This document shows positions 1-16,869 of a DNA stretch of 29,511 nt, one piece after another. Source of the DNA: an uncultured virus (IMG/VR IMGVR_UViG_2882707223_000001) (taxonomy: Duplodnaviria > Heunggongvirae > Uroviricota > Caudoviricetes). How positions within the stretch are numbered: position 1 is the first letter of the stretch; each line of letters opens with the position of its first letter. The notes under the pieces were generated by a model. That model did no database searches. It worked only from the letters and a program-made list of their open reading frames with translations, and was not told the DNA's origin. The stretch is taken from the IMG/VR virus record IMGVR_UViG_2882707223_000001, one strand, 5' to 3'. The position numbers were made by a program, and so were the translations under genes.

Positions 1-80
1 GCAAAAATCAGAATTGTGACACCTGCGAATTAAAGGATCGTTGCAATCTGAAAAAAGAGGGAGGCACAGATGAAAATTAA
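1..80 (+). CDS. 3' end of an upstream gene with a Cys-rich tail (possibly holin), partial
   Basis: Frame from nt 3 reads [25 protein letters not shown] and overlaps the endolysin start; function inferred only from position. Confidence 0.45.
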
Positions 81-1482
81 CGAGTTGGCAGTAACGGCGG
101 CGAGTATCATTTTTGACAATGAAGGCAGCTATGGCAGCGTGAATAAAAATGACAATGGGGCGGTTTCGGTCGGCAAGCTGCAATGGCATGGCGGCAGAGC
201 CGCCGCCCTGCTTAAAAGGATCATAAACGCGGAGCCGGAAGCAGAAAGCATTTTAGGCGGCGCGCTTTATGGGGAAATTACCGGAGGCGCAAATTGGGCG
301 GCGCGCATTGTCACCGCAGCAGAGGCGGCAAAGCTGAAAGCGATCTTGACAACCAAAGCGGGAAAGGCAGCGCAGGACGAGCAGGCGATCGCAGATGTGG
401 AAAGTTACATTAAAAAAGGGCAAAGTTACGGATTAACCGATGCGGGCGCACTGATCTATTTCGCGGACGGCGTAAACCAGTACGGAACCGCCTCCGCATT
501 ATGGGAAAAGATCGCGGCAGAGGCGTTAAAAGGCGCGGGCGATGTGCGGGCGATGTATGAGGCAACCACGAAAAACACAAACAAATACCTGACACGCCGC
601 AAAAAGGTATATGAAAAGGTTGAGGCGATGCAGGAAAAGGAGGACACCATGACGGAAAAACAGTTAAGGGAAAAGGCAGTAAATACCGCGAAAGCATGGG
701 AGGGCTGCAAAGAGAGCAACGGAACGCATAAAAAGATCATTGACCTTTACAATTCTGTAAAGCCCCTGCCGCGCGGGTATGCAGTAAAGTATAATGATGC
801 GTGGTGCGCGACATTTGTTAGCGCGGTAGGTATCGCGGCGGGATTGTCAAAGGCGATCTTGCGTGAATGTGGGTGCGGCGCAATGATTGATCTCTATAAG
901 GCGGCGGGGCGTTGGCAGGAAAATGATGCCTATGTGCCGAGTGCGGGCGATGTGGTATTTTATGACTGGCAGGACACCGGCAAGGGCGATAATACCGGCT
1001 ATCCGGATCACGTTGGTTTGGTGTGCGGCGTTTCCGGCAGCACTATTAAAGTGATCGAGGGAAATAAAAATGATGCGGTGGAATACCGCGATTTGCCGGT
1101 AAACGGCAGGTACATCAGGGGTTACGGATTGCCGGACTATAAAAGTATGGCAACGGCAGCAGAGCCGGAAAAACCGACAGCACCGGCAAAAAAGAGCGTT
1201 GCGGAAGTGGCGCGGGAAGTAAAAGCCGGAAAATGGGGTAACAATCCCGAAAGAAAGAAACAGTTAGAGGCGGCGGGCTACAATTACGCCGAAGTGCAGG
1301 CGGCGGTTAATGCCCTTATAAACGGATCCGGATCGGCACCGGAAACATACACCGTAAAGCAGGGCGATACGTTGAGCGCGATCGCAAGGAAATATAATAC
1401 AACGGTTGCCGCCCTTGCAAAGCTGAATAACATTAAAAATGTGAATGTTATCAATGCGGGGCAGGTTTTAAAGTTGAGATAA
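70..1482 (+). CDS. Multidomain phage endolysin: lysozyme-like N-terminal domain + CHAP + Cpl-7/CW_7 + LysM
   Basis: AWCATFVS and DHVGLV...IEGN (CHAP), [24 protein letters not shown] (Cpl-7), [16 protein letters not shown] (LysM); GGAGG RBS. Confidence 0.9.
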
Positions 1483-1492
1483 GGAGGCACAC

Positions 1493-1768
1493 ATGGCAGA
1501 AAACAAGGCAAGCAAGGCGGCAGGAGAGGCGCAGGAACCGCCCAAAAAGGAAAAGACATATAAAGTTACCTGCGGTACATTTAAAGCCCGAAATGAGGCG
1601 TTACAGAGGGCGGCAGAGGCAAAAAGGGCGGGCGTTCATGTATCGCTGAAAATCTGCAAGACAGAGTATAGCCTGCTTTATGCGGAGGATATGACGAAAG
1701 CAGAGGCAGAGGCAGCAAGAAAGGCAATCGAGGCGAAAAAGGTAAATGCCGAGGTTTCCGAGCAGTAA
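1493..1768 (+). CDS. Small SPOR-like peptidoglycan-binding protein
   Basis: YKVTCGTFKARNEA resembles the SPOR motif YxVQxGAF; AAGGAGG RBS. Confidence 0.55.
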   Translation: MAENKASKAAGEAQEPPKKEKTYKVTCGTFKARNEALQRAAEAKRAGVHVSLKICKTEYSLLYAEDMTKAEAEAARKAIEAKKVNAEVSEQ

Positions 1769-1789
1769 AGAAATTGTAAATGCAATGTT

Positions 1790-1823
1790 GGGGTATGGCG
1801 CAGGCTATACCCCTTTATTTTTT
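1790..1823 (+). terminator. Intrinsic terminator after the lysis genes
   Basis: GGGGTATGGC-gcag-GCTATACCCC stem followed by a T tract. Confidence 0.8.
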
Positions 1824-1843
1824 GTGCGCGGAAATATTTTTTA

Positions 1844-1891
1844 AAATATTACGCAATATGTATTGACATATTGCGTAATATGTAATATAAT
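1844..1891 (+). promoter_or_regulatory. Consensus sigma-A promoter with palindromic operator, copy 1
   Basis: TTGACA 1863-1868, 17 bp, TATAAT 1886-1891; perfect 16-bp inverted arms ATATTACGCAATATGT / ACATATTGCGTAATAT (1846-1881). Confidence 0.85.
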
Positions 1892-1923
1892 GAATATATC
1901 AAATGAAAGAGAGGTAAAACACC

Positions 1924-2178
1924 ATGAAACAGTTGTTAGAGAAATTAAAAGAGGCAGAGAGAAAAGCAGATGCAGCCGATCGGGAATATGAAAACGATCC
2001 GGAAAATGAGGAAAAGGAAAAGGCTTTTGATTTGGCATATAGCGAAGAATACAAGGCATTTGAGGAATTGGCAAGGGCGATAGTAAAAGCGACAGCGGGC
2101 AAAATCGACACACAGACAGCGGCGGCAATGATAAGAGGCAGGCGGCAGCAGTTGGAAACCATTTTAGGAATGATGTAG
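1924..2178 (+). CDS. Hypothetical small acidic helical protein
   Basis: ORF with GAGAGG RBS right after the consensus promoter. Confidence 0.75.
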   Translation: MKQLLEKLKEAERKADAADREYENDPENEEKEKAFDLAYSEEYKAFEELARAIVKATAGKIDTQTAAAMIRGRRQQLETILGMM

Positions 2179-2190
2179 GAGGGCGGGAAA

Positions 2191-2478
2191 ATGGCAGAGT
2201 ATAGCACATTGGTACAAGCAGCAATCAAAGAGGCACAGCAGACAGCAGCAGAGCAAAGGAAGAAAGCCACAGTTTCGGAAGTATACGAAGGGCGGCTATT
2301 GGAAACGGAATACATAAAGCGTGGCGGCGCGGTGTGGCAGCAAATAAGGGTTGACGGAAAAGTGACGAGCGAAAACAGAGTATATAAAGTAAATTCTGAT
2401 AAACCATATACAAGGGGTTTCGGGCGATATTGGTATTTGGACGATGAGGCAAAAGAGGCGATGCAGGCAGCTTTATAA
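2191..2478 (+). CDS. Hypothetical protein
   Basis: ORF with AGGAGG RBS, co-oriented with the previous gene. Confidence 0.75.
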   Translation: MAEYSTLVQAAIKEAQQTAAEQRKKATVSEVYEGRLLETEYIKRGGAVWQQIRVDGKVTSENRVYKVNSDKPYTRGFGRYWYLDDEAKEAMQAAL

Positions 2479-2485
2479 AGTTTGT

Positions 2486-2533
2486 AAATATTACGCAATA
2501 TGTATTGACATATTGCGTAATATGCGTTATAAT
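2486..2533 (+). promoter_or_regulatory. Consensus sigma-A promoter with palindromic operator, copy 2
   Basis: 2486-2524 is identical to 1844-1882 (39 bp); TTGACA 2505-2510, 17 bp, TATAAT 2528-2533. Confidence 0.85.
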
Positions 2534-2582
2534 ATTCATGTAAACAGTTAAGGGGCGGCACAAAGGAAAGGAAACAAGCCCC

Positions 2583-2714
2583 ATGATAAAGTTAATAGAA
2601 GTTTTGGCAGAAATAGCAATAGTGACAGTCATTGCCTTAGAGATAATAGAGGACATAAAAAATAGGGTTGACAGCGACCAAACCGACAACCCCAAAGACG
2701 ATAAAGAGCAATAG
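2583..2714 (+). CDS. 43-aa hydrophobic peptide, candidate type I toxin (not in ORF track)
   Basis: MIKLIEVLAEIAIVTVIALEIIEDIKNRVDSDQTDNPKDDKEQ; AAAGGA RBS; hydrophobic N-terminus and charged tail. Confidence 0.65.
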   Translation: MIKLIEVLAEIAIVTVIALEIIEDIKNRVDSDQTDNPKDDKEQ

Positions 2715-2743
2715 TAGCTAAGTAACCAAAGCCCCTTAACTGA
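2657..2743 (-). ncRNA. Candidate antisense RNA (type I antitoxin)
   Basis: Minus-strand TTGACT (2776-2771), 16 bp, TGnTATAAT (2754-2749); minus-strand terminator GGGTTGTCGG...TGTCAACCC-TATTTTT at ~2657-2692; ends approximate. Confidence 0.6.
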
Positions 2744-2792
2744 TTTACATTATATCATGGGAGCCGGAAAAGTCAAGAAGGGAGGGTTGAAA

Positions 2793-2975
2793 TTGCGATC
2801 CAACAATGAGTTTAACCAAATTGCATACCAAAACGACTATATCAAAGAAAAGTACGATCGGATTAATTTAACGGTGCCAAAAGGCAGAAAGGAGGAAATA
2901 AAGAAAAGGGCAGCAGCAGCGGGAAAGAGTGTAAACGAATATATAAATAGCTTAATTGATGATGATATGAAATAA
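2793..2975 (+). CDS. Arc/ribbon-helix-helix DNA-binding protein
   Basis: YDRINLTVPKGRKEEIKKRAAAAGKSVNEYI; likely TTG start at 2793 after GGAGGG (ORF track starts at 2757). Confidence 0.8.
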   Translation: MRSNNEFNQIAYQNDYIKEKYDRINLTVPKGRKEEIKKRAAAAGKSVNEYINSLIDDDMK

Positions 2976-2992
2976 AAGGTTTGGCGCGTGTA

Positions 2993-3026
2993 AAGGGCGG
3001 CAGGTAGACTATTACCCGCCGCCCTT
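2993..3026 (+). other. GC-rich hairpin upstream of the transposase
   Basis: AAGGGCGGCAGGTA-gactat-TACCCGCCGCCCTT; no long U tract. Confidence 0.55.
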
Positions 3027-3059
3027 CGGCGTGTGCAGAAAGGAAGATGAAACAATTTT

Positions 3060-4094
3060 ATGAAATCATTTAAACAATTTACATATAATGACCGGTTGCG
3101 GTTGGAGGTATTGGTTAAAGCAAAGCATACACCAAAGGAAATCGCGGAAATTCTACATTTCCATATTAGCACAATTTATAGGGAACTGAACCGAGGACAG
3201 TTTGAGGCGTTAAATTCAGATCTTACAAAAGAAATGAGATATAGCCCTGATATAGCACAGCAACATAAAGAGGAGGTTTTAGCTGCAAAGGGCGCAGATC
3301 TGAAAATTGGGAATGAGCGGGCATTTGCAGAGCGGGTAGAGGAAATCATAATAAAAGAGGGGTACAGCCCCGCGGCGGCACTGGCAAAAGTGAAAGCTGA
3401 AGGATATGATTTTTCAATATGTGTAACTACTCTATATAGTTACATTGATAAGGGCGTTTTTCTGAATTTGACAATGAAACACCTGCCGGAAAAGAGGAAA
3501 GGAGAAAAGAAACATAAGCGGAAAACCACACAAAAGCGGGCTACAAAAGGTGAAAGCATCGAGAACAGACCGGACGAAATAGACACGCGGGAGGAATTTG
3601 GGAATTGGGAAATGGACACCGTTGTAGGGGCGCGGGGAGTTTCTAAAAAATCTTTATTGGTACTGACAGAAAGGAAAACGCGAAAAGAAATTATATTTTT
3701 ACTGAAAGATCATACATCGGCAGCAGTTGTAAAAGCATTAGACCGGTTAGAAAGAAATTTAGGAAAAAAATTTAGAGAAATATTTAAAAGCATTACCGTA
3801 GACAACGGATCGGAATTTGCGGATTGGGAAGGCATGGAGCGATCCAAGCGCAGCAAGAAAAAAAGGACAAAAATATATTACTGTCACCCATATAGCAGTT
3901 GGGAGCGTGGCAGCAACGAGAACCAAAACAAATTAGTGCGCCGCCATATTCCAAAGGGCGTTAATTTTGATGATAAGACGCAGGGGGATATTGACAACAT
4001 AACAGAATGGATCAATAATTACCCGCGCCGCCTACATGAGTACAGAACGGCAGAGGAATTATATAATAAGGAACTGGAAAAAATTGCAGCATAG
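3060..4094 (+). CDS. IS30-family DDE transposase, intact
   Basis: N-terminal HTH (EIAEILHFHISTIYRELNRG); GNWEMDTV, SITVDNGSEF, HPYSSWERGSNEN and INNYPR motifs. Confidence 0.95.
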   Translation: MKSFKQFTYNDRLRLEVLVKAKHTPKEIAEILHFHISTIYRELNRGQFEALNSDLTKEMRYSPDIAQQHKEEVLAAKGADLKIGNERAFAERVEEIIIKEGYSPAAALAKVKAEGYDFSICVTTLYSYIDKGVFLNLTMKHLPEKRKGEKKHKRKTTQKRATKGESIENRPDEIDTREEFGNWEMDTVVGARGVSKKSLLVLTERKTRKEIIFLLKDHTSAAVVKALDRLERNLGKKFREIFKSITVDNGSEFADWEGMERSKRSKKKRTKIYYCHPYSSWERGSNENQNKLVRRHIPKGVNFDDKTQGDIDNITEWINNYPRRLHEYRTAEELYNKELEKIAA

Positions 4095-4106
4095 AACAAA
4101 TGTTTG
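4093..4106. promoter_or_regulatory. LexA/DinR SOS-box-like sequence
   Basis: AGAACAAATGTTTG fits the Firmicutes consensus CGAACRNRYGTTYG except at the first base. Confidence 0.5.
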
Positions 4107-4274
4107 ATACGCAACTACCCTTTATTTCGTGCGCCCATTTTTAGGCATCGCAGAAAGCGATCCGGATCCGGATCTGCATCACATCAACACTCAAACTTAT
4201 TATATGTGAAAATAGCACAATAAAACATTGGTTATGTTGTGCATATTGCTAAAAGTGAAAAAATCAAAAAAAAC

Positions 4275-4300
4275 TTTCGCATTTAATGTTGACATTTTCA
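4275..4300 (-). repeat. IS30-type terminal inverted repeat (single copy), probable right end of prophage A
   Basis: Reverse complement TGAAAATGTCAACATTAAATGCGAAA has the TG...TCAA...TGCG shape of IS30-family ends; contains an outward TTGACA at 4289-4294; composition shifts at 4300. Confidence 0.65.
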
Positions 4301-4400
4301 TTTTATTATCTTATATAAACAAATGCTTGTATATTAACAAATCTTTGTCTATAATAGAGTATGGTGCTGTTTTTTAACTCTTATACAGAAAGGACAAAAT

Positions 4401-4700
4401 ATGGACAAATTTGTAAAAAAACTGGTGAAGAACCACTTAGGGGCGTTTATGAATAAAAGTATAGACGCTTTAGCCTTGGCTGATGAAACATACCTTCAGG
4501 ACAGTAAGGCGGCTGATGAACTGGAAGAACGCTATAACGCTTTAAATATCCCTGAAAAGGATAGAATTGTTATAAATGATTACATAGCGTGTCTGGCAAC
4601 AAAAGAGCATAAAATGCGGGATTTGGCGTATCTGGCAGGTGTGGCTGATAGTATTAAACTTTTTAATGGGTTAGGGGCTATTAAGGATTTGGGGGCGTGA
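4401..4700 (+). CDS. Hypothetical protein
   Basis: AGAAAGGA RBS; upstream TTGTAT-17-TATAAT. Confidence 0.75.
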   Translation: MDKFVKKLVKNHLGAFMNKSIDALALADETYLQDSKAADELEERYNALNIPEKDRIVINDYIACLATKEHKMRDLAYLAGVADSIKLFNGLGAIKDLGA

Positions 4701-4701
4701 T

Positions 4702-4929
4702 GTGATACAAAAAATATTTGAATTTTTGCTTTTTCATTCGGTTGATAATATAAAATTTTATAATTTCTTATGTGATACCTTCCCTAAACTGGAAGAAAAA
4801 TATATGGAAAAAGAAGAAGCAAAAAACAGAGAGATTTGCATACCACAAGAAGATTTAGATCGTATGAGTCACAATGTATGGCAACGGCTGTGTGATTCTT
4901 TTCCTGCGTTAGACAGAAGTAAATTTTAA
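4702..4929 (+). CDS. Hypothetical protein
   Basis: GTG start coupled to the previous stop. Confidence 0.6.
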   Translation: MIQKIFEFLLFHSVDNIKFYNFLCDTFPKLEEKYMEKEEAKNREICIPQEDLDRMSHNVWQRLCDSFPALDRSKF

Positions 4930-4951
4930 TCATTAGAAAGGATTATAAAAA

Positions 4952-5263
4952 ATGGAACAAGAAAAGAAAGATTTTACTAAAAAAATTATGATTGGTGCGG
5001 TGTTGGCGGTATTATATATTGTTGTTTGTTTACCTAAATTTCTTATGAATCCCTTCTTGGGCATTTTTCAATCATTGTTGGGTGCTGTATTTCTTTTTTG
5101 TGCGCCGTGGGGGTGGGGCTTACCTAATAAACTCGTGGCAAAAGGGAACACGGATTATATTATTCCATTCCCTCTATATGTAGCCTTAAAAGCATTTAGC
5201 GCCTTTTTCCTTGGGTGGGCGGGCTTCTTATATGATATATACAAAATGTTTATAAAAAAATAG
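4952..5263 (+). CDS. Small multi-pass membrane protein
   Basis: Three hydrophobic segments, Lys-rich ends, AGAAAGGA RBS; hairpin at 5277-5308 follows. Confidence 0.75.
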   Translation: MEQEKKDFTKKIMIGAVLAVLYIVVCLPKFLMNPFLGIFQSLLGAVFLFCAPWGWGLPNKLVAKGNTDYIIPFPLYVALKAFSAFFLGWAGFLYDIYKMFIKK

Positions 5264-5334
5264 AATCAATTTTTTAAAAGGGCAAGGGGTTTTGATCCCT
5301 TGCTTTTTAAATTTTTATATTATATAATTTATTC

Positions 5335-5473
5335 AGAGAGAAGGAAGAAAAATTATTTTTCCTATTTTTTCACTTATGATTTTTGTATATACTCCCTTAA
5401 TATAAAAAAAGATTGTTTTAAAAATTGAATATCGTGTAAAAAGATTAGCCTTGTAGTGTGCTAATCTTTTTTT
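5335..5473 (+). ncRNA. Candidate sRNA 1
   Basis: TTGCTT(5300)-17-TATAAT(5323), no credible ORF, terminator AAAGATTAGC...GCTAATCTTTTTTT at ~5437-5473. Confidence 0.45.
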
Positions 5474-5559
5474 GTTAATAACCATAGGTTATTGACTGGC
5501 ACAATTTTAATACAACTTATGAAATTAAGTTATAATGAATATGTTATGTTATAAAACAT

Positions 5560-5588
5560 TTGACAAAAATCTCTATTAGGGGTATACT
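5560..5588 (+). promoter_or_regulatory. Sigma-A promoter of the 5753-8877 operon
   Basis: TTGACA-17-TATACT. Confidence 0.65.
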
Positions 5589-5752
5589 GTATATACAACA
5601 TAATAAAAAAGAGAAAATACTAACTAATTAAAGAATTAAAGAATAAAGAGAAAAGGATAATTTTAAACAGTTTTTTTATAAACTGTTGTTTCCTGTTCTC
5701 TTTTTTATTTTGTCTAAATATGAAAAATCTATAAGAAAGGAAATAAAACACA

Positions 5753-5992
5753 ATGAAGAAAATAATTATAAAAATTACTGAAAGACCTAAAAAGCCCTTA
5801 TATGGTGATTATGAAATCTTATACGGCTTAGGTATAGATAGTGACAAGACTATTTATGAATTATATTTTGAAGATAACAACAAAAAAATCGGTAAACTTG
5901 TAAGTGCTAAAAACACAATAACAGGTAAAAACGAAAAATTAGAAAATGTTGTTATAAGGGGGCTTGAAAAATGGCAGACAAAAAGAAAATAA
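5753..5992 (+). CDS. Hypothetical protein
   Basis: AGAAAGGA RBS, 79 aa. Confidence 0.65.
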   Translation: MKKIIIKITERPKKPLYGDYEILYGLGIDSDKTIYELYFEDNNKKIGKLVSAKNTITGKNEKLENVVIRGLEKWQTKRK

Positions 5993-6126
5993 ATTTTAAT
6001 ATCAATAAAAATGTTCTGGCTGATTTAGATAAAAAAGCAAAAGAAAATGATATGACTAGAACAACACTAATTACAATTTTAATAAGAAAATATTTATATA
6101 AGAATGATGAAAGAGAGGTTATTTAA
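5971..6126 (+). CDS. CopG/ribbon-helix-helix protein, 51 aa (not in ORF track)
   Basis: MADKKKINFNINKNVLADLDKKAKENDMTRTTLITILIRKYL...; alternating beta strand then two helices; AAGGGGG RBS. Confidence 0.75.
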   Translation: MADKKKINFNINKNVLADLDKKAKENDMTRTTLITILIRKYLYKNDEREVI

Positions 6127-6127
6127 A

Positions 6128-6931
6128 ATGAAAAATAATAAATTAAATAAAAAAATTATAATCCCTGTTCTTATGGGGGCTTTAACAATAGCAAATTTAA
6201 CCAGTCCAGTCCACGCTGATCCTTCTGCGGCTGATAATGATTATCAAATAATAGTTATAGAAAAAGATCCCGAAACTGGAAAATATGTAAAAAAAATTTC
6301 TTACACAGAACACGCTTATTTCGGAACTACTGGATTTTGTAATATCTGCAATATGACAATCAATGAAGGAAATCATACAAACAAACTTGTAAAAGATGAA
6401 GATAAAGGCATTATCATTGGTAAAGATGAAGAAAGCGGTATTCCTGTTATTCCAGAAGATAATAGGGGCGTTGTTATTGGTAAAGATGAAGAAAGCGGCG
6501 TTCCTGAAATATCTACAACTAATGTTATTGTAAAAATGAACGGTGATGTTATAAATATTGACTGTAAAAGCGGCACTTATAAAGAAGTTTTTAACTATAT
6601 AAAAAATCTTGGTTATACAGATTTTACAGTTAAAAATTATTGGAACACACAAGTTTATTCTTGGTATAAATACGATAATAAAAAAATTTGTGATGTATTT
6701 TTAAATAATAATACTACTACAAATAAAGATGAAAAAGTTGTTGTTCAGTCTTTAAAAATCAATGGTAAATTTGTTGACATTGAATGTAAAAGCGGCACTT
6801 ATAAAGAAGTTTTTAACTATATAAAAAATCTTGGTTATACAGATTTTACAGTTAAAAACTATTGGAACACAACCGTTTACGCTTGGTATAACATAAACGA
6901 AAGCGGTAAATGTGAAGTATTTTTTAAATAA
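6128..6931 (+). CDS. Secreted protein with CxxC motif and a duplicated C-terminal domain
   Basis: Signal peptide MKNNKLNKKIIIPVLMGALTIANLTSPVHA; two ~55-aa copies of CKSGTYKEVFNYIKNLGYTDFTVKNYWNT; start reassigned from 6104. Confidence 0.8.
   Translation: MKNNKLNKKIIIPVLMGALTIANLTSPVHADPSAADNDYQIIVIEKDPETGKYVKKISYTEHAYFGTTGFCNICNMTINEGNHTNKLVKDEDKGIIIGKDEESGIPVIPEDNRGVVIGKDEESGVPEISTTNVIVKMNGDVINIDCKSGTYKEVFNYIKNLGYTDFTVKNYWNTQVYSWYKYDNKKICDVFLNNNTTTNKDEKVVVQSLKINGKFVDIECKSGTYKEVFNYIKNLGYTDFTVKNYWNTTVYAWYNINESGKCEVFFK
6563..6871 (+). repeat. Direct repeat 6563-6649 / 6785-6871
   Basis: 86 of 87 nt identical, offset 222 nt. Confidence 0.9.
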
Positions 6932-6951
6932 ATAGAAAGAAGGTAATAAGA

Positions 6952-8523
6952 ATGAAAAATAATAAATTAAATAGAAATGTAAATAAGGTAATAACAATAG
7001 GAATGGCGGGGGCTGTTGCCCTCTCTGCTCCACTTAGTTTTGTATATGCTAGTCCAGACGCTGACGAACAACACGAATACACAGATATTCACGGCGTATG
7101 TGATATATGCGGGGAAACAAAAGAAGATGGAAACCACTTTGTAGATGAAATTATAGATGATGGCATTATAGAAATTGATCCAAATGATACCGAAAATGAT
7201 AAAAAAGATGATGATGTTATTATAGTTGATACTTGCGATGAGGATCATATTGAATATCCTTTTGTGGATTTAGATAATGACGGTTTTTGTGATAACTGTG
7301 GGGCTGAAAAGAAAGAAAACACAGAGAACACAGAAAGCACAGAAATACCAGAAGAAAAGAAAGACTTTACTTTTTTTATAAAAGGTTATAATACTGCTGA
7401 TGATAAAAATATAACAAATATCTATAATAAATTAAAAACAGATGGAAAATATAAATTGTCTTATAGTGATAATAAAACAGAAAAAGATTTAAAGGTAAAA
7501 GTAAATATTTATAATAACAATGATGAAATTATTGATAATTTTGTACTTAGTAATAGTGATAATATTATAAAAAATTTACTTGATGAAGATGAACAAGGTT
7601 ATAAACAATTTTCTTGTAAATATGAACTTGTAGCCGAAAATTTGCACTATACAAAAGATAATAAATGTTTTATGTATAGTAGCATAAAAACAGAAAATGG
7701 CGAAATTCCTGTTTTGAAATTATTTCAATTAACGCCTTGTACTAATCACAGTGATTTTGAAAATCCTGTTCATATTGAAAAAGAATTTGGCGTTGTATGT
7801 GATTATAATAATCCTAATTTTGATTTAGATTTATTTTTAGAAGATGAAGAAATAGAAAACTTTTTCTTTGGTAATATAGTTGTTGATAAAGATTGCTGTT
7901 GTGTGAGTGGTGTTCCTGATTTACCAGACTTACCAGACATAAGCACAGAAACAACAGAAACTACGGAAAGCACTGAAACAGAAAGCACCGAAACAGAGAG
8001 TACAGAAACAGAGAGTACAGAAACAGAAAGCACTGAAACGGAAAGCACTGAAACAGAATCCTCTGAAACAGAATCCTCTGAAACGGAAAGCACTGAAACA
8101 GAATCCTCTGAAACAGAATCCTCTGAAACAGAAAGCACTGAAACAGAATCCTCTGAAACAGAAAGCACTGAAACAGAATCTTCTGAAACAGAGAGTACAG
8201 AAACAGAAAGCACCGAAACAGAATCTTCTGAAACAGAATCCTCTGAAACAAGAACAACTGAAACAACAACAACTCCTACTCCTGAACCTGTTAAACCTGT
8301 GAATCCTGTTGAACCTGTAAAGCCTGTTGAGCCTACACCAACACCAATTACAACCACAACAGAAACAACAACTACCACAACAGAAACAGGAAAAGTTGAT
8401 CCTAGTGAAAAAAATGAAATTGTTCAGACTGGCGATTTAGCAACTAATACATATTATGGCGGCTATTTCTTAACTGGGGGATTTGCTGTTTTAACTGCAT
8501 TTTTTAAAAAGTTTAAAAAATAA
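6952..8523 (+). CDS. Cell-wall-anchored acidic surface protein with Glu/Thr/Ser stalk
   Basis: Signal peptide, CxxC motifs, ETEST/ETESS array, PVEPVKP linker, sorting signal VQTGD + hydrophobic helix + KKFKK. Confidence 0.85.
   Translation: MKNNKLNRNVNKVITIGMAGAVALSAPLSFVYASPDADEQHEYTDIHGVCDICGETKEDGNHFVDEIIDDGIIEIDPNDTENDKKDDDVIIVDTCDEDHIEYPFVDLDNDGFCDNCGAEKKENTENTESTEIPEEKKDFTFFIKGYNTADDKNITNIYNKLKTDGKYKLSYSDNKTEKDLKVKVNIYNNNDEIIDNFVLSNSDNIIKNLLDEDEQGYKQFSCKYELVAENLHYTKDNKCFMYSSIKTENGEIPVLKLFQLTPCTNHSDFENPVHIEKEFGVVCDYNNPNFDLDLFLEDEEIENFFFGNIVVDKDCCCVSGVPDLPDLPDISTETTETTESTETESTETESTETESTETESTETESTETESSETESSETESTETESSETESSETESTETESSETESTETESSETESTETESTETESSETESSETRTTETTTTPTPEPVKPVNPVEPVKPVEPTPTPITTTTETTTTTTETGKVDPSEKNEIVQTGDLATNTYYGGYFLTGGFAVLTAFFKKFKK
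7972..8250 (+). repeat. 15-bp coding tandem repeat (ETEST/ETESS)
   Basis: Units such as ACTGAAACAGAAAGC and TCTGAAACAGAATCC, about 18 copies. Confidence 0.9.
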
Positions 8524-8550
8524 AAATTTATAGAAAGGGGGATATAAAAA

Positions 8551-8877
8551 ATGGAAGAATTAACATTATTTGAAAAAGTAATTTTATTTTTCAGTGGGGA
8601 AGGTGGCACAACAATAGAAGAAGTATTCTCATTTTTCAGGGATATGTTACCTATTTATGTAATTTTTACTCCTGCGGCTGTTGTTGGAATTTGTATACTT
8701 CTTGTAATGATAATGACAACTCCTAGTGATACAAAAGCGGTTGAATATAAAGAATATATAAAATATATATGTTGGGCATGGGTGATCCTTCAGTTCGTTC
8801 CTACTTTTATGGTAATGTGCTTTAATTATGCAACTGCAAATAACGCCTTCACTTGGGCTGTTTCTAACAGTATTTAA
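8551..8877 (+). CDS. Two-TM membrane protein, VirB2/TrbC pilin-like candidate
   Basis: Two hydrophobic helices joined by a Lys-containing loop (SDTKAVEYKEYIK), Pro after the second helix. Confidence 0.5.
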   Translation: MEELTLFEKVILFFSGEGGTTIEEVFSFFRDMLPIYVIFTPAAVVGICILLVMIMTTPSDTKAVEYKEYIKYICWAWVILQFVPTFMVMCFNYATANNAFTWAVSNSI

Positions 8878-8897
8878 TTATTAAACTATAAAAACTA

Positions 8898-8929
8898 AAT
8901 AGCGTATATCTTAGGTATGCGCTATTTTT
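8898..8929 (+). terminator. Intrinsic terminator
   Basis: AATAGCGTATA-tcttagg-TATGCGCTATT-TTT. Confidence 0.75.
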
Positions 8930-9047
8930 GATCTATTGCTTTTATAAATAAAAGATTATAAAATTAATATATAAGTTATTTATTTTATAAAAGTATAGTG
9001 TTTAAAAGTTAAAAGGTGGCGGCTTAATCTGCGTGATTATGTAAGGC

Positions 9048-9075
9048 GTCCATTATAAGAAAAGTTATGTAATAT
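9048..9075. other. dif-like Xer recombination site candidate
   Basis: GTCCATTATAA-GAAAAG-TTATGTAATAT, 11-6-11 layout with XerD-like TTATGTAA arm. Confidence 0.45.
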
Positions 9076-9210
9076 AACAATTTTATATTACTTTTAGATG
9101 AAAAATTATAAAATGAATAACATTTTTTTATATGACAACTAAATACAAAATTTAATATAGAGTAAACCAAAAAAACCAAAAAAATATAATGTGAAAGGAA
9201 ATAAAATATT

Positions 9211-9522
9211 ATGAAGAAAGAGATTTATAATGAATTAAAGAAGGAACTATTAAACAATGACAGAATAGAAAAGGTAAGTAAAAAAGGTGATTACATTACA
9301 TTAGAACTTAATGCAACTGATTATCTTTATACGCCTAATGAAATAAGATTTATTTTACATATTGCTCTTATGAATCTGAATAAAGATTTTAATTATTGCG
9401 AATATGAAAATGAAGAACTTCCAACAAAATATGGCAAGTTTAAATATGTTAAGCACGAACAAGGTAACAGTATAAGTCTTAATACTTTTATTGTTTATAG
9501 CGTAACCTATAAAATCATTTAA
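9211..9522 (+). CDS. Hypothetical protein
   Basis: GAAAGGA RBS; terminator-like hairpin at 9552-9602 follows. Confidence 0.7.
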   Translation: MKKEIYNELKKELLNNDRIEKVSKKGDYITLELNATDYLYTPNEIRFILHIALMNLNKDFNYCEYENEELPTKYGKFKYVKHEQGNSISLNTFIVYSVTYKII

Positions 9523-9645
9523 AATTTAATAAAAAACTTAATATTGAAATTAAGGGATCATCTTTTTTCGAGTAGAAGTGAAAAAGGTTGATCCCTTTTT
9601 TTATACTAAAACACAAAAAAACTTATAAAAAGGAAGGTAATAAAA

Positions 9646-9894
9646 ATGAAAATAGAAGAAGTTTATAAGATAATGCAATTATTAAAAAGAGATAAAAGAT
9701 TTGATGTATTTGTGGATATTGAAAATCTTGGAAAGGATTATGATCGTGAGAATTTACCATATATGATTTTAGAACATAATCCATATCAACCAGTTCAAGA
9801 ATTACGCTTACAAGGTTTAATTTATATGGGCTTTATTACTGATGGATATTATCATTTTCATAAAAAAGTATATCCTGTTGAAATATTTGCATAA
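9646..9894 (+). CDS. Hypothetical protein
   Basis: AAGGAAGG RBS. Confidence 0.7.
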   Translation: MKIEEVYKIMQLLKRDKRFDVFVDIENLGKDYDRENLPYMILEHNPYQPVQELRLQGLIYMGFITDGYYHFHKKVYPVEIFA

Positions 9895-9938
9895 ACAAAC
9901 TAATTATAAAAAACTTTTGAAAAGGAAGGGTAAAGATT

Positions 9939-10454
9939 ATGACAAAAACTTATTTTGAAAATGTAAACACACTTGAAGAATTAAGAAAGCAATACAAGAA
10001 ACTTATTAAAATGTATCATCCTGATAATGCGTTTGGCTCTGATGAAGATATGAAAGCAATAAACGCTGCATATGAGCGGCTTTTTAAAATCTTAAAAGAC
10101 AAGCACACACAGGAAACAGAAGAAACAGAAGCGGCAGGCGGTTATCAGTCTACATATTCAAAAAATATGTATAATTTTGAAGATGATTCCGTGTTGCGTG
10201 AAATGCTTACAAGAATTATAAATTTTGACTGTGATATAGAAATTATAGGCTCTTGGCTATGGGTTTTTAATTCATTCAATTACAGAAAAGAGTTAAAAGA
10301 ATTAGGCTTCAAATATGCAAGCAATAAAAAGGCTTGGTATTTTCATACTGAAGCATTTAGAAAATCAAGCAATAAAAAATTAAGCCTTGATGATATAAGG
10401 GCTTATTATGGAACTACTAAAATAAAAGAGGAAAAACGGCTATTAGAAGCCTAA
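9939..10454 (+). CDS. J-domain (DnaJ-like) protein
   Basis: LEELRKQYKKLIKMYHPD...MKAINAAYE with HPD motif; C-terminal IEIIGSWLWV...LKELGFKY domain. Confidence 0.85.
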   Translation: MTKTYFENVNTLEELRKQYKKLIKMYHPDNAFGSDEDMKAINAAYERLFKILKDKHTQETEETEAAGGYQSTYSKNMYNFEDDSVLREMLTRIINFDCDIEIIGSWLWVFNSFNYRKELKELGFKYASNKKAWYFHTEAFRKSSNKKLSLDDIRAYYGTTKIKEEKRLLEA

Positions 10455-10545
10455 AAAATTATAGGGATTATTTTTATAAAAGATAATCCCTTTTTATAAA
10501 AAAAGCACAATAAAACACAATAATTATAGAAAGGAAGAAAAAACT

Positions 10546-11622
10546 ATGAAAAAACTAATAATAACAATAACAAATATTTTAATGAGCCTTAGTATTATAG
10601 GCGGCTCTACAACTGAATATATAAAATTTAATGTAAATGATTTAATGAGAGTAGATACCTTTTTATATTCTGCTCCTGAAATTGTAGATGATGAACCATT
10701 TACACAAACGGCTTATACTATTATAAAAGAAAAGAAGGCTGTAAAACCTGAACCAGTGAAGGAAGAAACAACTCCTACTCCTGAACCAGTAAAAAAAGAC
10801 GATTCTAACCAAAAAACTGAACCAGTCAAAAAGGAAGAAACTCCTACTCCTGAACCTGTGAACCCTGAACCAGTAAAGGAAGAAGAACCACAACCACAAG
10901 AACTACAAGATACAGTGGCAAGCGGTAATATTATAAATTTTAACAATAATATTAATAAGCGTGGCGGCGTGGAAACTTTACCAGAGTATTTACAAGGTTA
11001 TGCGGATCAAATTATGGGCGTGTGCTTAAATAATGATGAAATGACACATTGCTTTCATTGGGCTGAACTTTCTGCGTCTGATATGGAAACTATAAAACAA
11101 GCAATAAATAGAACTTATTTCGCTTATTATGACGCTAGAATTATTATAAATTATTGGGATGAAGGGGAATATTATTTAACAACAAATAACAGTAGAGAAA
11201 GATATAATAAAAGTCTTGAAGTTGAGAATAATATAAAAAGTATTGTAAATAATATTGTAACTTCTGATATGACTGAAAAAGACGCTATAATTGCTATAAA
11301 TAATTATGTATGTGATCTTATAACATATGAATTATCACAAGGTGACTTTTATCTTGCTTTACAGACTGGAAAAGGAAACTGCAGAACATATGCTTGTATT
11401 TTTAAAATGATGTGTAATCAAGTAGGCATTGAATGTGACTATATAGAAGGTTATGCAAACGGCGGCGGTCACGCTTGGAATAGAGTATATATTGGCGGCG
11501 TTCCTTACTGGGTAGATGCTTGTTGGAATGATGGCGGCAATCAATATCTTTTAAGTGCTGATTTATGGGAAAATCATTCAGTAAGCACAGTCAATCAATT
11601 TTTTTATAATGATGAATTTTAA
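10546..11622 (+). CDS. Secreted transglutaminase-like (Cys-His-Asp) protein
   Basis: N-terminal hydrophobic leader, Pro/Glu linker, GNCRTYA, GHAWNRV, VDACW. Confidence 0.85.
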   Translation: MKKLIITITNILMSLSIIGGSTTEYIKFNVNDLMRVDTFLYSAPEIVDDEPFTQTAYTIIKEKKAVKPEPVKEETTPTPEPVKKDDSNQKTEPVKKEETPTPEPVNPEPVKEEEPQPQELQDTVASGNIINFNNNINKRGGVETLPEYLQGYADQIMGVCLNNDEMTHCFHWAELSASDMETIKQAINRTYFAYYDARIIINYWDEGEYYLTTNNSRERYNKSLEVENNIKSIVNNIVTSDMTEKDAIIAINNYVCDLITYELSQGDFYLALQTGKGNCRTYACIFKMMCNQVGIECDYIEGYANGGGHAWNRVYIGGVPYWVDACWNDGGNQYLLSADLWENHSVSTVNQFFYNDEF

Positions 11623-11706
11623 AAATAATAGTCTTTACTGCTTAGTGCTGTAAAGGCTATTTTTGATCTGTTGACATTTAAGAGTAAAAAATTATATAAT
11701 TATAAA

Positions 11707-11874
11707 TGACAGAGAAAGAACCCTGTTAAAAAAGTTTTTTATGAAGTTTTTACACTTCTATAAGTTTATTGTGTTTTAGACTTTTTACATTATAAAAAAT
11801 TTTACTCTAAAATATTTATGAATAAAAAAATGTTATTCTATATTATAAGCCGTATAAAAGCGGCTTATTTTTTT
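11707..11874 (+). ncRNA. Candidate sRNA 2
   Basis: TTGACA(11671)-18-TATAAT(11695), no credible ORF, terminator ATAAGCCG-tataaaag-CGGCTTAT-TTTTT. Confidence 0.5.
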
Positions 11875-12057
11875 GCTTTTTTGTAACTGCTTATTATTTT
11901 ATACATATGTTATATGTAATCTATACATAACTTATGGTGTATAAAATATGTATAAAAAGCCTTAAATGCGGTAGGATTGTTTTTAAATTTCTTCAATGAG
12001 TGTTTACCCTCTAAAAGTATTTTAAAATCATTCTGGCGTATTTTTTATAATAAGCAT

Positions 12058-12093
12058 AAGAAAAAGCCCTTATTTTAAAAGGGCTTTTGTCTT
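12058..12093 (-). terminator. Terminator downstream of the recombinase (possibly bidirectional)
   Basis: AAAAGCCCTT...AAGGGCTTTT stem. Confidence 0.7.
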
Positions 12094-12098
12094 GGCTT

Positions 12099-13619
12099 TT
12101 AAATTTTCCAGTCAATTTCTATATTTCCAGATTCGTCAAGTAATATCTTATTTACCAGAATTTTTAACAATGCCTGTTTTTCTTCTGTTGCTAAATCTTT
12201 ATAAATTGTATCTTTTGCTGTTATAGTTTCTGCGCCTGTTCTTTGTAAAACTTTTAAAACTCTATACTCAATTTTATCAGATGGGGCTATATCTGCCTGA
12301 ATCTTATAATTTATTTCTGCGAGTTGTTGCTCTCTTTCCTCTATTGCTTTTGTTATAGTTTCGGCTATTGCGGGGTTTACAGCAAGAGTGGATATAAGGT
12401 TATTTATTTCAGTCTGTAATGAATCGGCTTGCTTTTGGTATTCTTCAAGTTTTGCTTTCCATTCAAGTTGGTTTTTTGTAAAATCATCTAAATACTTTTG
12501 AATTTCAATGGCAACTTTTTCTTGTATTCCTTCCAGTCTTACGCCTTTAAAACTTGTATCACATATGCCTCTTAGTTCGCTTCTACCTACACAAGACATT
12601 GAACCATATTTCCCTTTTATTTTGATAGCCCGTCCACACTTAGCACATTTTACAAGTCCAGACAATTCAGCAAATTTGCCCTTTGGCGTATTATCTCGTG
12701 AGTATGATGTATTTTGGCTTAACCGTTCCTGAACCATTAAAAAGGTGCGGCTGTCAATATATCCCTTCCAGTTGGTTATATAAATTTTCCAGTCGGTGGG
12801 CGGGTTTTGTAAGGTTTTCTCTCCTGATTGATCGGTTTTGTTTAAAATACAACACGCCCGCTCTCCATTCCATTCGCTAGAATCATTTAAAAAATTTGCT
12901 CCTAAACTTTTATAATAATTATATAGTTTTTGGTCTGCTATTGCGTATATAGGGTTTGATAAAATATTATTTATGGCTGTTGCTGTCTTAGATATTCCTT
13001 TTTTATCATATAAAAATTTTGTTAATTTGTGTAATGATGTATTGCTGTCAAAAGCATATTTTTTATATAAAAGTTCTATAATTTCTTTGTCTGCTGTTGG
13101 CTTTAATGTGCTTAATCCGTTTTTATCTTTTGCTAATTTAAAAGCATATGGGGTTTTCCCGCCTAACCAACGCCCGTCTGTTTCTGCTCTGGCATAATAA
13201 GAATCTTTTACTCTTAGCTGTATATTTTCTCGTTCCATTTGGGCAAAATTGATTAAAATACCTATCAATAACCGCCCTATGCTTGATGATGTATCAAATT
13301 CATCTTTTACAGAAACAAAATCACAATGATGTTTATTCATAAAATCATATAAATTATAGAAATCAACAACATTGCGGCTTATACGGTCTAGCTTATAAAC
13401 TATAACTTTGTCAATCCTGTTGTTTTCAATTTCTTCCATAAGGTTTTTAAGTTGTGGGCGTGCTGTATTTTTTCCAGAATACCCTCTATCCTCATAAACT
13501 TTTATATCTGCGCCTTTTTCCCTTCTCTCAACTTCTGCTCTACAAGTTTCGATCTGTGTATCAATACTTAAACTGTCCTCTTTAAAAACGCTCTGCCGTG
13601 CATATATTGCTATTGTCAT
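12099..13619 (-). CDS. Large serine recombinase (integrase)
   Basis: IAIYARQS catalytic Ser, DRGYSG, VYKLDRISR, recombinase domain, zinc ribbon CAKCG...C...C, coiled coil; GGAGGG RBS. Confidence 0.95.
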   Translation of the reverse strand: MTIAIYARQSVFKEDSLSIDTQIETCRAEVERREKGADIKVYEDRGYSGKNTARPQLKNLMEEIENNRIDKVIVYKLDRISRNVVDFYNLYDFMNKHHCDFVSVKDEFDTSSSIGRLLIGILINFAQMERENIQLRVKDSYYARAETDGRWLGGKTPYAFKLAKDKNGLSTLKPTADKEIIELLYKKYAFDSNTSLHKLTKFLYDKKGISKTATAINNILSNPIYAIADQKLYNYYKSLGANFLNDSSEWNGERACCILNKTDQSGEKTLQNPPTDWKIYITNWKGYIDSRTFLMVQERLSQNTSYSRDNTPKGKFAELSGLVKCAKCGRAIKIKGKYGSMSCVGRSELRGICDTSFKGVRLEGIQEKVAIEIQKYLDDFTKNQLEWKAKLEEYQKQADSLQTEINNLISTLAVNPAIAETITKAIEEREQQLAEINYKIQADIAPSDKIEYRVLKVLQRTGAETITAKDTIYKDLATEEKQALLKILVNKILLDESGNIEIDWKI

Positions 13620-13666
13620 ATGAAAAGCCCTCCTTTTGTGGTATAGTCGTGTTATCTACTATAACT

Positions 13667-13695
13667 ATTATATCAGAAAAGTTGACTTTTGACAA
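13667..13695 (-). promoter_or_regulatory. Recombinase promoter at the element boundary
   Basis: TTGTCA (13695-13690), 17 bp, TGnTATAAT (13672-13667). Confidence 0.7.
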
Positions 13696-15028
13696 TATCG
13701 GCTATCTGCTGAAGACCATGATGGATAAGATGATGTGGCAGGCGTATTACAGCTGCTTTGATGAATACCTTAAATCAGAGCTGCAGATGGATTACACGAT
13801 GGCAACCCGCTTCATCAAGGCGTGCGAGAAATACTCCGCCAAGGGAAACGGCATGGAGATCGAGGAAAAATATGAAGGATACTCCCAGGCGGTTCTGATC
13901 GAGATGCTGAACATGCCGCCGGAACTGGAAGAAAAGATAGCTCCGAGTATGACCGTGAAGCAGGTGAGGGAGATAAAGCGGCAGGCAAAACAGAAAGATA
14001 AGCCTCTGAAAGAGTCAGAAGAACCAGCTGATGGAGATATAGTCATAGACGGGGAATACAGAGAGATCGATATACCGGAATCAGAAAATATTGTTCCGGA
14101 GAAAGTTGCGACGTCGCAACCTGAGGATCCTGGCGAGATTCATGATGAAAGATGGTTCGTGGAACAGTATGTTAAATTTGAACCGAAGGAATCTGAAGAA
14201 TTGATGTGCATTTGTCTCCGGGAGAAAGACAATTCTGACAGGGCGGATGCTATTCAGAAGCACATATCCCCATATGGGTACAATTGCGGTGGAAGTTCGG
14301 AATTCGGTTTTGCTTTCCGTAGTTTCGCTGTCGGGGTGAGGCTTTATACAAAAAAAGAGAAGATCCATATGACATATAGGCGATTTGCAAAAGAGCTATG
14401 CCGGATAGCGGAAGAAACAGCGCTACCGCAATCGGCGAAATCGGCATATGGACTTGAAAAAACAGAATACCCGGAAGGGAGTTCTTTGGCGGGAGAAGGA
14501 TGCGGGCATAAGTATAATTGTTTTTTATGCGCACAGGCCTGCAGCATCAGAGGGGAAAACCGGCACTGTAGGTTTGCACCGCTTGGAGCTCCGTTTGATT
14601 GTGAAACGATGGAAATCCTTGAAAAAGGAGATCTGGAGAAAGTAGGGGATAGGTGCCAATTTGTTAATAATGATCTGGCATATCATACAGCAGGCAGCAA
14701 AGAGGCGGATCCATGCTGTAGGGTGTGTGAAGAGGTGTGTGAGTATCGATGCCAGAGATCGATTCAGGAGAATAAAACGGAGAAGCAGAGTGAATCAGAA
14801 GTTCTCCAAGAAAAAGAAATACTGGAGTCGGAAGCTGAGACAGAGAAGGATGAAGATCCCGAGCCGCTGAACGAGATGTGTGAGGTGCGTAAAATTTTGG
14901 AACAGGAGAAACAACATCTTAATGATTATCTTGAAATAGGGGGCATACCGGAAAAAACAATATTCCGCCAGAAGATTATCGTGGCAGCGCTTTCAGCGTT
15001 GGTACGTAATCTGGAAAAATCCGAATAA
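13696..15028 (+). pseudogene. 3' part of a DUF3102-like phage protein gene interrupted by element B
   Basis: Phage-like sequence starts at IGYLLK...YSCFDEYLKSELQMDYTMATRFI with no RBS or start; the first ~33 codons of the listed ORF are AT-rich element-B DNA. Confidence 0.7.
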
Positions 15029-15044
15029 AAGGGAGCAGAATGAA

Positions 15045-15299
15045 ATGAAAAATACACTTACAGACCTTAATAATTATCTTTTTGAGCAGTTAGAGAGGCT
15101 CAACGATGATGATCTGACGGGGGAACAGCTTGACCGGGAACTGCAAAAGACTGACAGCATCGTCAAGATATCCGAGAAGATTATCGAGAACGGAGAACTG
15201 GCTTTTAAGACCATGAAACATTTGGATGAATTCGGATACCATCCGGACAAGAGCATCAGATCAGTACCCCCGATGCTTACCACGGAAGGGAAGTGGTGA
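15045..15299 (+). CDS. Small phage protein upstream of the HNH gene
   Basis: MKNTLTDLNNYLFEQLERLND...; GGGAG RBS. Confidence 0.8.
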   Translation: MKNTLTDLNNYLFEQLERLNDDDLTGEQLDRELQKTDSIVKISEKIIENGELAFKTMKHLDEFGYHPDKSIRSVPPMLTTEGKW

Positions 15300-16132: not shown

Positions 16133-16214
16133 ACAGAATAGAAAAGGCGGTAGATGAAATAGCAGCCTATGTGTGATAAGGTTTGCGGACATAGAGCGGA
16201 AGAATGGAGGGGTA
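16129..16214 (+). pseudogene. Frameshifted remnant of a small phage gene
   Basis: ATGA-coupled start MNRIEKAVDEIAAYV* continues as CDKVCGHR in another frame at a GTGTG run. Confidence 0.4.
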
Positions 16215-16634
16215 GTGTTGGACAAAAAGGTTTTATCGGATTACATAGATATCTGTGAGCTGATCAGCGAGATGGAGGAAGAGATACAGAATCTGCGAAA
16301 AAAAAAAATAGCGCATGACAAAGTAACTGGAAGCAACCCGGAGTTCCCATATGAGCAGAGAAGCTTTCATGTATCGGGGATAATTGAAGCGGATCTGGAC
16401 AGTCAAAAGCTGAAAAGTGAACTGGAGCTGTTGAAAGAGAGAAAATACCAGGCGGAAAAAATGAAAGCGGAGATCGACAGGTGGATGAAGACCATACCGG
16501 CGAGGATGCAGCGGATTATTCGGATGAAATATTTTGAACGGAGAACGTGGGATGAAGTTGCGATTAAGCTGGGAAAAACGGCTACGGCGGATAATACGAG
16601 AAAAGAATTTGAAAGATTTTTGCAAAAAAAATAA
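16215..16634 (+). CDS. RinA/ArpU-like late transcriptional activator
   Basis: C-terminal sigma-r4-like HTH (QRIIRMKYFERRTWDEVAIKLG), last gene before the packaging module; start at 16215 or 16218 after GGAGGG. Confidence 0.75.
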   Translation: MLDKKVLSDYIDICELISEMEEEIQNLRKKKIAHDKVTGSNPEFPYEQRSFHVSGIIEADLDSQKLKSELELLKERKYQAEKMKAEIDRWMKTIPARMQRIIRMKYFERRTWDEVAIKLGKTATADNTRKEFERFLQKK

Positions 16635-16795
16635 AATTTTGTCCGTTTTGTCCACATTGTCCGGTTTTCCTATGTTAAAATGTAAAATGAAGTTGGTATG
16701 CAGAATACCTCCCCAATACATTTTTCAAAATACCTGGCTATTTCCCGGCTGGGTATTTTGTTTTTGCTGGTATGTCCAATAATATAACGTCTAAA

Positions 16796-16849: not shown

Positions 16850-16869
16850 ATATACATAAGGAGGACATA

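Follow-up and report, generated by a model that had tools for sequence, protein, structure and literature searches.

By which enzyme does a prophage enter its host when the last gene before its border codes for a transposase of an insertion sequence (IS) family? The question is raised by the window, the whole stretch of 29,511 nucleotides analysed here, which comes from an uncultured virus of the Caudoviricetes (IMG/VR record IMGVR_UViG_2882707223_000001) and corresponds to G000:C4:91916-121426 in a genome of 4.02 Mb from the mouse gut. An earlier note on this DNA had proposed that an IS30-family transposase serves as integrase of the phage and that the whole phage is the transposable unit. 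The analysis favours this answer with a probability of roughly 90%: window 1-4300 would form the right-hand end of a temperate myovirus-like phage of 41,415 bp, of the kind of phage Lagaffe and the IScream phages, that acts as a giant IS30-family element. The element has one intact outward transposase gene, two imperfect inverted repeats and, as first gene at its far end, a truncated paralogue of the transposase reduced to a helix-turn-helix (HTH) domain. Positions given without a contig name refer to the window.

Transposase, terminal repeats and target duplication

The transposase (344 amino acids; Table 1) features the Pfam domains rve and HTH_38, the latter at residues 4-46. Its residues 1-343 align to PHROG phrog_4646 (E 4.5e-129), and the NCBIfam model NF033563 "IS30 family transposase" is matched at positions 1-267 of 267 with 239.4 bits (cut-off 80). 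Residues D186, D248 and E287, located in the motifs WEMD, TVDNGSEF and ERGxNE, respectively, are invariant in 9/9 aligned relatives of 53-61% identity; judging by the motifs of IS30, they are presumably the catalytic triad. The gene is intact and is the last one of the prophage, preceded by genes from the endolysin to a ribbon-helix-helix (RHH) protein, just as the earlier note had described it. A role of its product as the phage integrase is supported by these sequence features.

The right tip of the element was placed by comparison with a second prophage on contig C22 of the same genome. Over the 44 nt that end at window 4300 and at C22:107933, respectively, the two copies share 95% identity (78% over the region 4202-4300), and they diverge directly after TTGACATTTTCA (TTTTCA), which sets the right tip at window 4300. 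The GC content falls there from ~0.41 to 0.23-0.34, so that the IS30-like end had been correctly read as stopping at a composition break. A search of window 2600-4400 gave no partner for the terminal core in 2600-3060, in agreement with the previously reported lack of an upstream repeat near the gene. The partner inverted repeat lies at C4:54801, at the far end of the prophage, as had been predicted. Because it is found 41.4 kb upstream on the same contig, the whole phage, C4:54801-96215 (41,415 bp), is one transposable unit. In the C22 element the partner repeat begins at 68571, and the unit spans C22:68571-107933 (39,363 bp). The terminal positions are complementary at 20/26 in the C4 pair and at 19/26 in the C22 pair, with a perfect 13-nt core ATTAAATGCGAAA. 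Terminal inverted repeats of ~20-30 bp, as is usual in the IS30 family, are present in the pair C4:54801/window 4300. Two further candidates were discarded: a 74%-complementary pair at 4207-4225/4282-4300 lies downstream of the transposase gene and is thus unable to delimit an IS, while a 20-nt look-alike of the tip at C33:160689-160708 has unrelated surroundings and was taken as a chance match.

Direct repeats of 15 bp abut the tips of the element on both sides (Table 1) and bound the transposable unit. The C22 element is likewise bracketed by 15-bp repeats, AGGATGATGGTTGAG, which abut its tips and of which a single copy is found at the corresponding empty site of a same-genus genome (G021). 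When the left tip was located by pattern search in eight other genomes and its flank compared with the right flank, a 15-bp repeat was present in 8/8, each of different sequence. Pairing of flanks across IMG/VR contigs (36 unique left versus 54 right flanks) yielded three more pairs of 15 bp and one of 16 bp. Two suffix-prefix matches of 8 nt between flanks of opposite sides are A-rich and were taken as chance. Of the 14 insertions, 13 have a duplication of 15 bp and one has 16 bp, with a sequence unique to each site, which replaces the 2-3 bp that the earlier note had anticipated.

The DNA between the tips, C4:54801-96215, codes for a complete myovirus-like phage with every gene on one strand, according to PHROGs and Pfam. 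The HTH_38 protein comes first, followed by a replication initiator (Rep), methyltransferases, a single-stranded DNA-binding protein (SSB) and ParA. HNH, TerS, TerL, portal and major head protein genes occupy the middle, then come adaptors, sheath, tube, tape measure and baseplate. The late part has a diversity-generating retroelement (DGR; Avd and reverse transcriptase) and then holin and endolysin. No tyrosine or serine recombinase was detected inside C4:54801-96215 or C22:68571-107933 by six-frame searches that gave 11 matches to PF00589 and 18 to PF00239 genome-wide; the absence of such an integrase was one of the checks named in the earlier note. Two open reading frames (ORFs) that cross the locus borders have no recombinase domain, and a large ORF of 514 amino acids has no Pfam match.

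It is very improbable that an ordinary ~1.3-kb IS30-family IS merely happened to insert at the border of a prophage with some other means of movement. The gene does code for a standard full-length IS30-family transposase, and IS30-family ISs occur within other phage records, for example those of staphylococcal phages. An IS of this type is contradicted by the missing inner inverted repeat in 2600-3060 and by the presence of the partner repeat, with the second copy of the 15-bp duplication, 41.4 kb away. The same arrangement recurs in the C22 prophage and in the eight other genomes, and no other recombinase lies inside the phage. A six-frame search of the 4.02-Mb genome with NF033563 gave two matches, confined to the C4 and C22 elements, so there is no stand-alone copy of such an IS elsewhere in the genome.

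Junctions of abutted tips and the left end

Relatives of the transposase are encoded at 47 IMG/VR loci. In fourteen distinct IMG/VR contigs the right tip runs into the left tip across a spacer of two variable nucleotides; within the largest lineage this spacer is AA in five cases, TT in two, and CG, GA or GC in one each. Two further contigs join the C4 element's own tips, with spacers AT (L175) and CT (L176), and the record of Lagaffe has the junction as well. The spacer in junctions of IS30 itself is 2 bp. The junction of every lineage creates a -35/-10 pair, with TTGACA or TTGACT in the right tip and, 17 nt away (16 in Lagaffe), TAAAAT, TAGAAT, TAATCT, TAAGAT or TAATAT in the left tip. This putative promoter points into the early genes. 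The suggestion that the outward TTGACA might form a junction promoter is thus upheld by abutted-end contigs of relatives, two of them with the tips of the C4 element.

These junctions also bear on whether the 15-bp repeats are attL and attR cores of a conventional recombinase encoded nearby, either the tyrosine recombinase fragment of C4:53604-54266 or the serine recombinase of window 12099-13619. A 15-bp flanking repeat has the classic look of an att site, both recombinase genes are less than 10 kb from the ends, and a 2026 preprint describes a 15-kb element edged by a partial IS30 and interprets the 15-bp repeats on either side of it as the outcome of site-specific recombination (10.64898/2026.07.08.737213). 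Nevertheless, the repeat is a different one at each of the 14 sites, although the tips next to it are constant, and the junctions have 2 nt between the tips instead of a 15-bp core. Both recombinase genes lie outside the repeats, in the low-GC island that the phage interrupts, and the C22 element has neither of them nearby. An att origin of the repeats is accordingly given hardly any credence, and the conventional integrase with att sites, raised in the earlier note as the outcome that would speak for a different mode of integration, is at odds with the 2-nt junctions and with repeat sequences particular to each site.

The first gene of the left end (C4:54865-55149) codes for a 94-amino-acid protein that consists of HTH_38 only and matches transposase residues 2-68. 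The gene starts 64 nt inward from the tip, with the junction promoter immediately before it. An equivalent truncated HTH gene is found at the left end of the C22 element, and the gene is kept in lineages down to 52% transposase identity. In addition, the core of the left-end repeat makes up the 5' arm of a strong hairpin that has a U-run behind it (C4:54817-54860, L001:10817-10860), with energies of -17.8 and -20.0 kcal/mol and z scores of -4.6 and -6.7 in the C4 and C22 elements, respectively. The same layout with a different stem sequence appears in two other lineages (L013; Lagaffe, L165:2590-2655). An RNA begun 7-8 nt past the junction -10 would lack the outer arm of the hairpin, leaving -6 or -5 kcal/mol. 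From these sequences it is inferred that the hairpin terminates read-through from the host and lets transcripts of the junction promoter pass. It could be an entry terminator, an inverted second binding site for the transposase, or both.

The transposase-derived gene at the left end is what a composite transposon would leave, in which two IS30 copies, one of them decayed, sandwich the phage. This is the picture drawn for the IScream phages, whose organisation is called reminiscent of composite transposons in the text of PMC12823448. There is a single terminal repeat at each end, though, and neither transposase-derived gene is bracketed by a pair of its own; the position of the HTH gene and its conservation at such distance look like those of a working part rather than debris. 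A composite origin is thus considered improbable, albeit less so than a chance IS. The two readings, giant unit and composite, differ in history more than in present mechanism.

The C22 transposase is 62% identical to that of C4, and its element is a siphovirus-like phage (loci L004-L006) with TerL, portal, protease, head, tape measure, Dit and a reverse transcriptase of its own. The two phages share only ~2.4 kb of alignable DNA, made up of the tips, part of the transposase gene and a methyltransferase gene; their left tips are 93.5% identical over 62 nt. As the same end module serves two unrelated virion types in one genome, it appears from the sequences to be exchanged between unrelated phages. 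In the IMG/VR pairs L083/L043 and L092/L040 the left tip is ~4-7 kb from the transposase gene, which gives mini-elements that have the same ends but are too short to contain a phage; the text of the IScream paper likewise mentions two elements of less than 10 kb (PMC12823448).

Transposases of 95-97% identity occupy ten different sites in ten mouse-gut metagenome-assembled genomes of several named genera. Contigs from four mouse-gut runs of four studies that cover window 2494-4300 stop at 4300 or enter other sequence. In mouse-gut runs other than that of the window, contigs identical to it over 2494-4300 run past 4300 into sequence unlike it; the one such flank that was compared, from run X5, is a different one and has TTGA at +27. 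Such identity up to the tip followed by foreign sequence speaks against the C4 copy being an immobile fossil of the right family, as do the presence of all modules with open reading frames, the intact catalytic residues and tips and the identity of the two duplication copies. A fossil would fit with the burial of the element in nested mobile elements and with evidence that consists of contigs, with no direct sign of excision or virions for this copy. That it is one is seen as unlikely, though the least so of the alternatives considered.

Insertion next to host promoters and comparison with known systems

A set of right flanks was assembled from the 94 loci with a recognisable tip by removal of 21 junction forms and of three flanks shorter than 62 nt and by merging of near-identical sequences, which left 54 unique flanks. 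The best match to TTGACA-(16-18)-TATAAT starts 25-27 nt past the right tip in 42/54 flanks, and at exactly 26 nt in 34; in 300 rounds with shuffled flanks, on average 2.7 and at most 8 flanks had it at offset 25-27. Matches of at least 5/6 to TTGACA at offset 26 occur in 30/54 flanks, compared with three or fewer at any other offset, and matches of at least 5/6 to TATAAT at offset 49 occur in 28/54. Among the 27 flanks with two strong hexamers, 25 hold the -35 at offset 26, with a spacer of 15, 16, 17 or 18 nt. The -35 being fixed while the spacer varies, the distance is set from the -35 and not from the -10. A-tracts are found at +9 to +13 and +18 to +22, in what we take to be a resemblance to an UP element.

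The promoter-like site is present at the empty G021 site and is therefore host DNA. The C22 insertion has TTGCAT-17-TAAAAT at this place, and the corresponding site in the window is given in Table 1. Promoters of tRNA genes were considered as the rule and dismissed: a tRNA gene lies just downstream in 2/15 loci with long right flanks, so that the targets are promoters in general. The base frequencies of the -35 in the aligned flanks look to us like those of ordinary promoters, which makes docking on promoter-bound RNA polymerase a live possibility. A literature search on promoter targeting or long duplications in the IS30 family gave unrelated papers only.

By analogy with IS30, the transposase would join both ends into a circle by copy-out; the circle junction would then be cleaved at both tips and the ends would attack the target 15 bp apart. 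The sequences themselves show that insertion takes place in a single orientation: the right tip comes to lie 26 nt before a host -35 hexamer, and the site spans the A-rich, UP-element-like region. The promoter could be recognised through its -35 by the transposase or the HTH paralogue, or else by docking of the complex on promoter-bound RNA polymerase. Integration would split the early promoter, and the left-end hairpin with its U-run would halt host read-through, so that the early genes may be silent in the lysogen and on only once the ends rejoin. With odds a little better than even, this clade of IS30-family transposases practises such promoter-guided transposition of a 40-kb phage circle: single orientation, exactly 26 bp upstream of a sigma-A -35, cuts 15 bp apart across the UP region, docking on RNA polymerase (through sigma region 4 or the alpha C-terminal domains) as a candidate beside reading by the HTH, and a lysis-lysogeny state held in DNA topology instead of a repressor. 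Host promoter and genes would then stay intact.

Several points weigh against these readings. The IMG/VR contigs of L077/L125 (about 34 kb) and L089/L121 (about 22 kb) hold both ends without a flanking repeat, which could result from recombination between copies or from chimeric assembly. Contigs with abutted tips fit circles, concatemers or tandem copies alike, excision or virions of the C4 copy are not shown, and assembled contigs cannot reveal rare circles. The promoter calls are consensus matches with transcription starts unmapped, and the start used in the hairpin argument is a rule-of-thumb assumption. At the C4 site the -35 (TTGTAT) matches at 3/6 positions, the -10 at 6/6, and 12/54 flanks have no promoter-like site at offset 25-27. 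Finally, PHROGs and Pfam searches of minus-strand and small ORFs near both ends gave no usable repressor.

The class to which the phage belongs is already in print and the C4 copy alone would be ordinary. IScream phages were named by Wirbel, Hickey et al. (2025, Nature), who report circles and DNase-protected DNA in B. hansenii in the text of PMC12823448. The C4 phage fits that description: it is a complete tailed prophage that lacks a tyrosine or serine integrase, with an outward-facing gene for a full-length IS30 transposase at one end and, at the opposite end, a truncated IS30-derived gene without a catalytic domain. Hosts among the gut Clostridia and occurrence of the same phage in different host taxa are also common to both (PMC12823448). 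The C4 phage differs in coming from a mouse-gut genome. The agreement in architecture upholds the view in the earlier note that the phage matches the IScream gut phages and is a new member instead of a new class. The main text, the preprint and 11 of the 17 supplement files of the IScream study mention no inverted or direct repeats, target duplication, promoter or integration site, and its text does not mention Lagaffe (PMC12823448). As far as seen in these sources, four features are additions to the published class: the duplication of 15 bp, the 2-nt spacer of the junction, the split promoter and a target close to promoters. The C4 phage shows each phage of the class to be one giant IS-like unit whose tips are defined, and not a loose "sandwich" made from two ISs.

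FP_Lagaffe (Cornuault et al. 2018) is described in passages of PMC5883640 as a myovirus with a DGR, an "IS30 TPase" integrase, direct-repeat flanks and hosts of different families. In its record (MG711461) an IS30-family transposase annotated as integrase, 52% identical to that of C4, is followed by an HTH gene; the DGR (reverse transcriptase and Avd), the repeat core TAAATGCGAAA and the split promoter at the junction are shared too. Its genome has 48.2 kb as compared to 41.4 kb and its promoter spacer 16 instead of 17 nt. Among the relatives found, those with the nearest transposases are phage-borne (Saumur, 56.5%; Lagaffe, 52%; the 47 IMG/VR loci).

IS30 of E. coli has in common with the C4 element the family, abutted inverted repeats as reactive intermediate and a junction promoter, Pjunc, according to sections of PMC9333248. 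It measures 1.2 kb, in contrast to 41 kb, and cuts its target 2 bp apart with a 2-bp duplication, in contrast to 15 bp (PMC9333248). Its targets are palindromic hot spots or its own repeats and not promoters, and Pjunc drives the transposase whereas the C4-type junction promoter faces early phage genes. Mu-like phages such as Mushu also combine integration by a DDE transposase with a target duplication, but passages of PMC5883640 describe them as replicating by transposition, packaging host flanks and using near-random sites. Their transposase is of another family and the duplication is of 5 bp. In contrast to them, genes for TerS, TerL and HNH are part of the C4 phage, and packaging in Lagaffe uses a cos site.

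Ty3 and similar elements integrate at a fixed distance from transcription start sites. Like the C4 phage, Ty3 lands at a set distance upstream of a promoter and leaves genes intact; it is a eukaryotic retroelement tethered to Pol III factors, with no homology to the C4 phage, for which tethering is a candidate mechanism. If confirmed, a promoter-finding DDE transposase would be the bacterial counterpart of the promoter-tethered integration of eukaryotic elements and could be a programmable "safe-harbour" inserter for large DNA. The landing rules (15-bp duplication, 26 nt upstream of a -35, one orientation) would allow prophage boundaries in gut metagenomes to be drawn to the base. The broad host range reported for these phages may find part of its explanation here too, since what they target is a promoter instead of an att site peculiar to one host.

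Neighbouring genes and genomic setting

Table 1. Features of the right end of the C4 element and of the adjoining DNA
Feature	Position	Strand	Remarks
Diversity-generating retroelement, adjoining the left border of the window, at tail-fibre end of phage	C4:88457-91406		Avd-like C4:89576-89983; reverse transcriptase C4:90294-91406; arrangement shared with Lagaffe
Late end of prophage: 3' part of holin gene, endolysin, SPOR-domain protein, small ORFs	1-2478	+	Pfam, PHROGs
Endolysin (CHAP, CW_7, LysM)	70-1482	+	Pfam, PHROGs
SPOR-domain protein	1493-1768	+	Pfam, PHROGs
Two small ORFs	1924-2178 and 2191-2478	+	Pfam, PHROGs
Promoter-like site TTGACA-17-TATAAT	2505-2533	+	Consensus match, 12/12; putative, upstream of RHH-transposase pair
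Arc/CopG-like ribbon-helix-helix gene	2757-2975	+	Pfam Arc, RHH_5; phrog_13890, phrog_582
GC-rich hairpin	2993-3026	+	14-nt arms, 93% complementary; between RHH and transposase genes
IS30-family DDE transposase, 344 amino acids	3060-4094	+	Outward-facing; Pfam, PHROG, NCBIfam, residue alignment
Right end of element	4095-4300	+	206 nt between transposase gene and tip
Inverted-repeat core TTTCGCATTTAAT	4275-4287	+	Right end; tip ends at 4300
TTGACA in right tip	4289-4294	+	-35 half of abutted-tip promoter, per junction contigs
Right copy of 15-bp target duplication TTTTATTATCTTATA	4301-4315		Identical left copy C4:54786-54800, abuts tip
Host promoter-like site TTGTAT-17-TATAAT	4327-4355	+	-35 begins 26 nt after tip; first downstream gene 4401-4700
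DnaJ-domain protein, island	9939-10454		
Transglutaminase-like protein, island	10546-11622		
Large serine recombinase, island	12099-13619	-	

The RHH gene that precedes the transposase gene is a candidate regulator. In phage Saumur, an annotated "Arc-like repressor" precedes the transposase gene by ~1.4 kb, and four small ORFs separate the two. A second near-consensus promoter-like site (2776-2749, minus strand) faces away from the one upstream of the RHH gene, and the divergent pair could be a control region for transposase expression.

The phage interrupts a low-GC island (GC 0.22-0.36) that comprises C4:~47000-54800 and window 4301-13600. Besides the proteins listed in Table 1, the island codes for a Rep_OBD/helicase protein, the tyrosine-recombinase fragment (220 amino acids) and, just left of the insertion, a cro/C1-type HTH protein. 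It is itself enclosed by another siphovirus-like prophage, with replication genes at C4:44003-46800 and tail and lysis genes in window 13598-29511, giving mobile elements nested three deep. No match to terminase, portal or major capsid proteins was found in the window part of this outer prophage. Its left part has primase/AAA_25 and RusA genes, while HNH, a regulator, head protein, major tail, tape measure, Dit, tail proteins, holin and endolysin are encoded in the right part. The latter includes the gene pair 16828-17040 and 17096-17518, with matches to the PHROG families "toxin" (phrog_353) and "HicB-like" (phrog_497). Another serine recombinase is encoded at C4:32454-32900.

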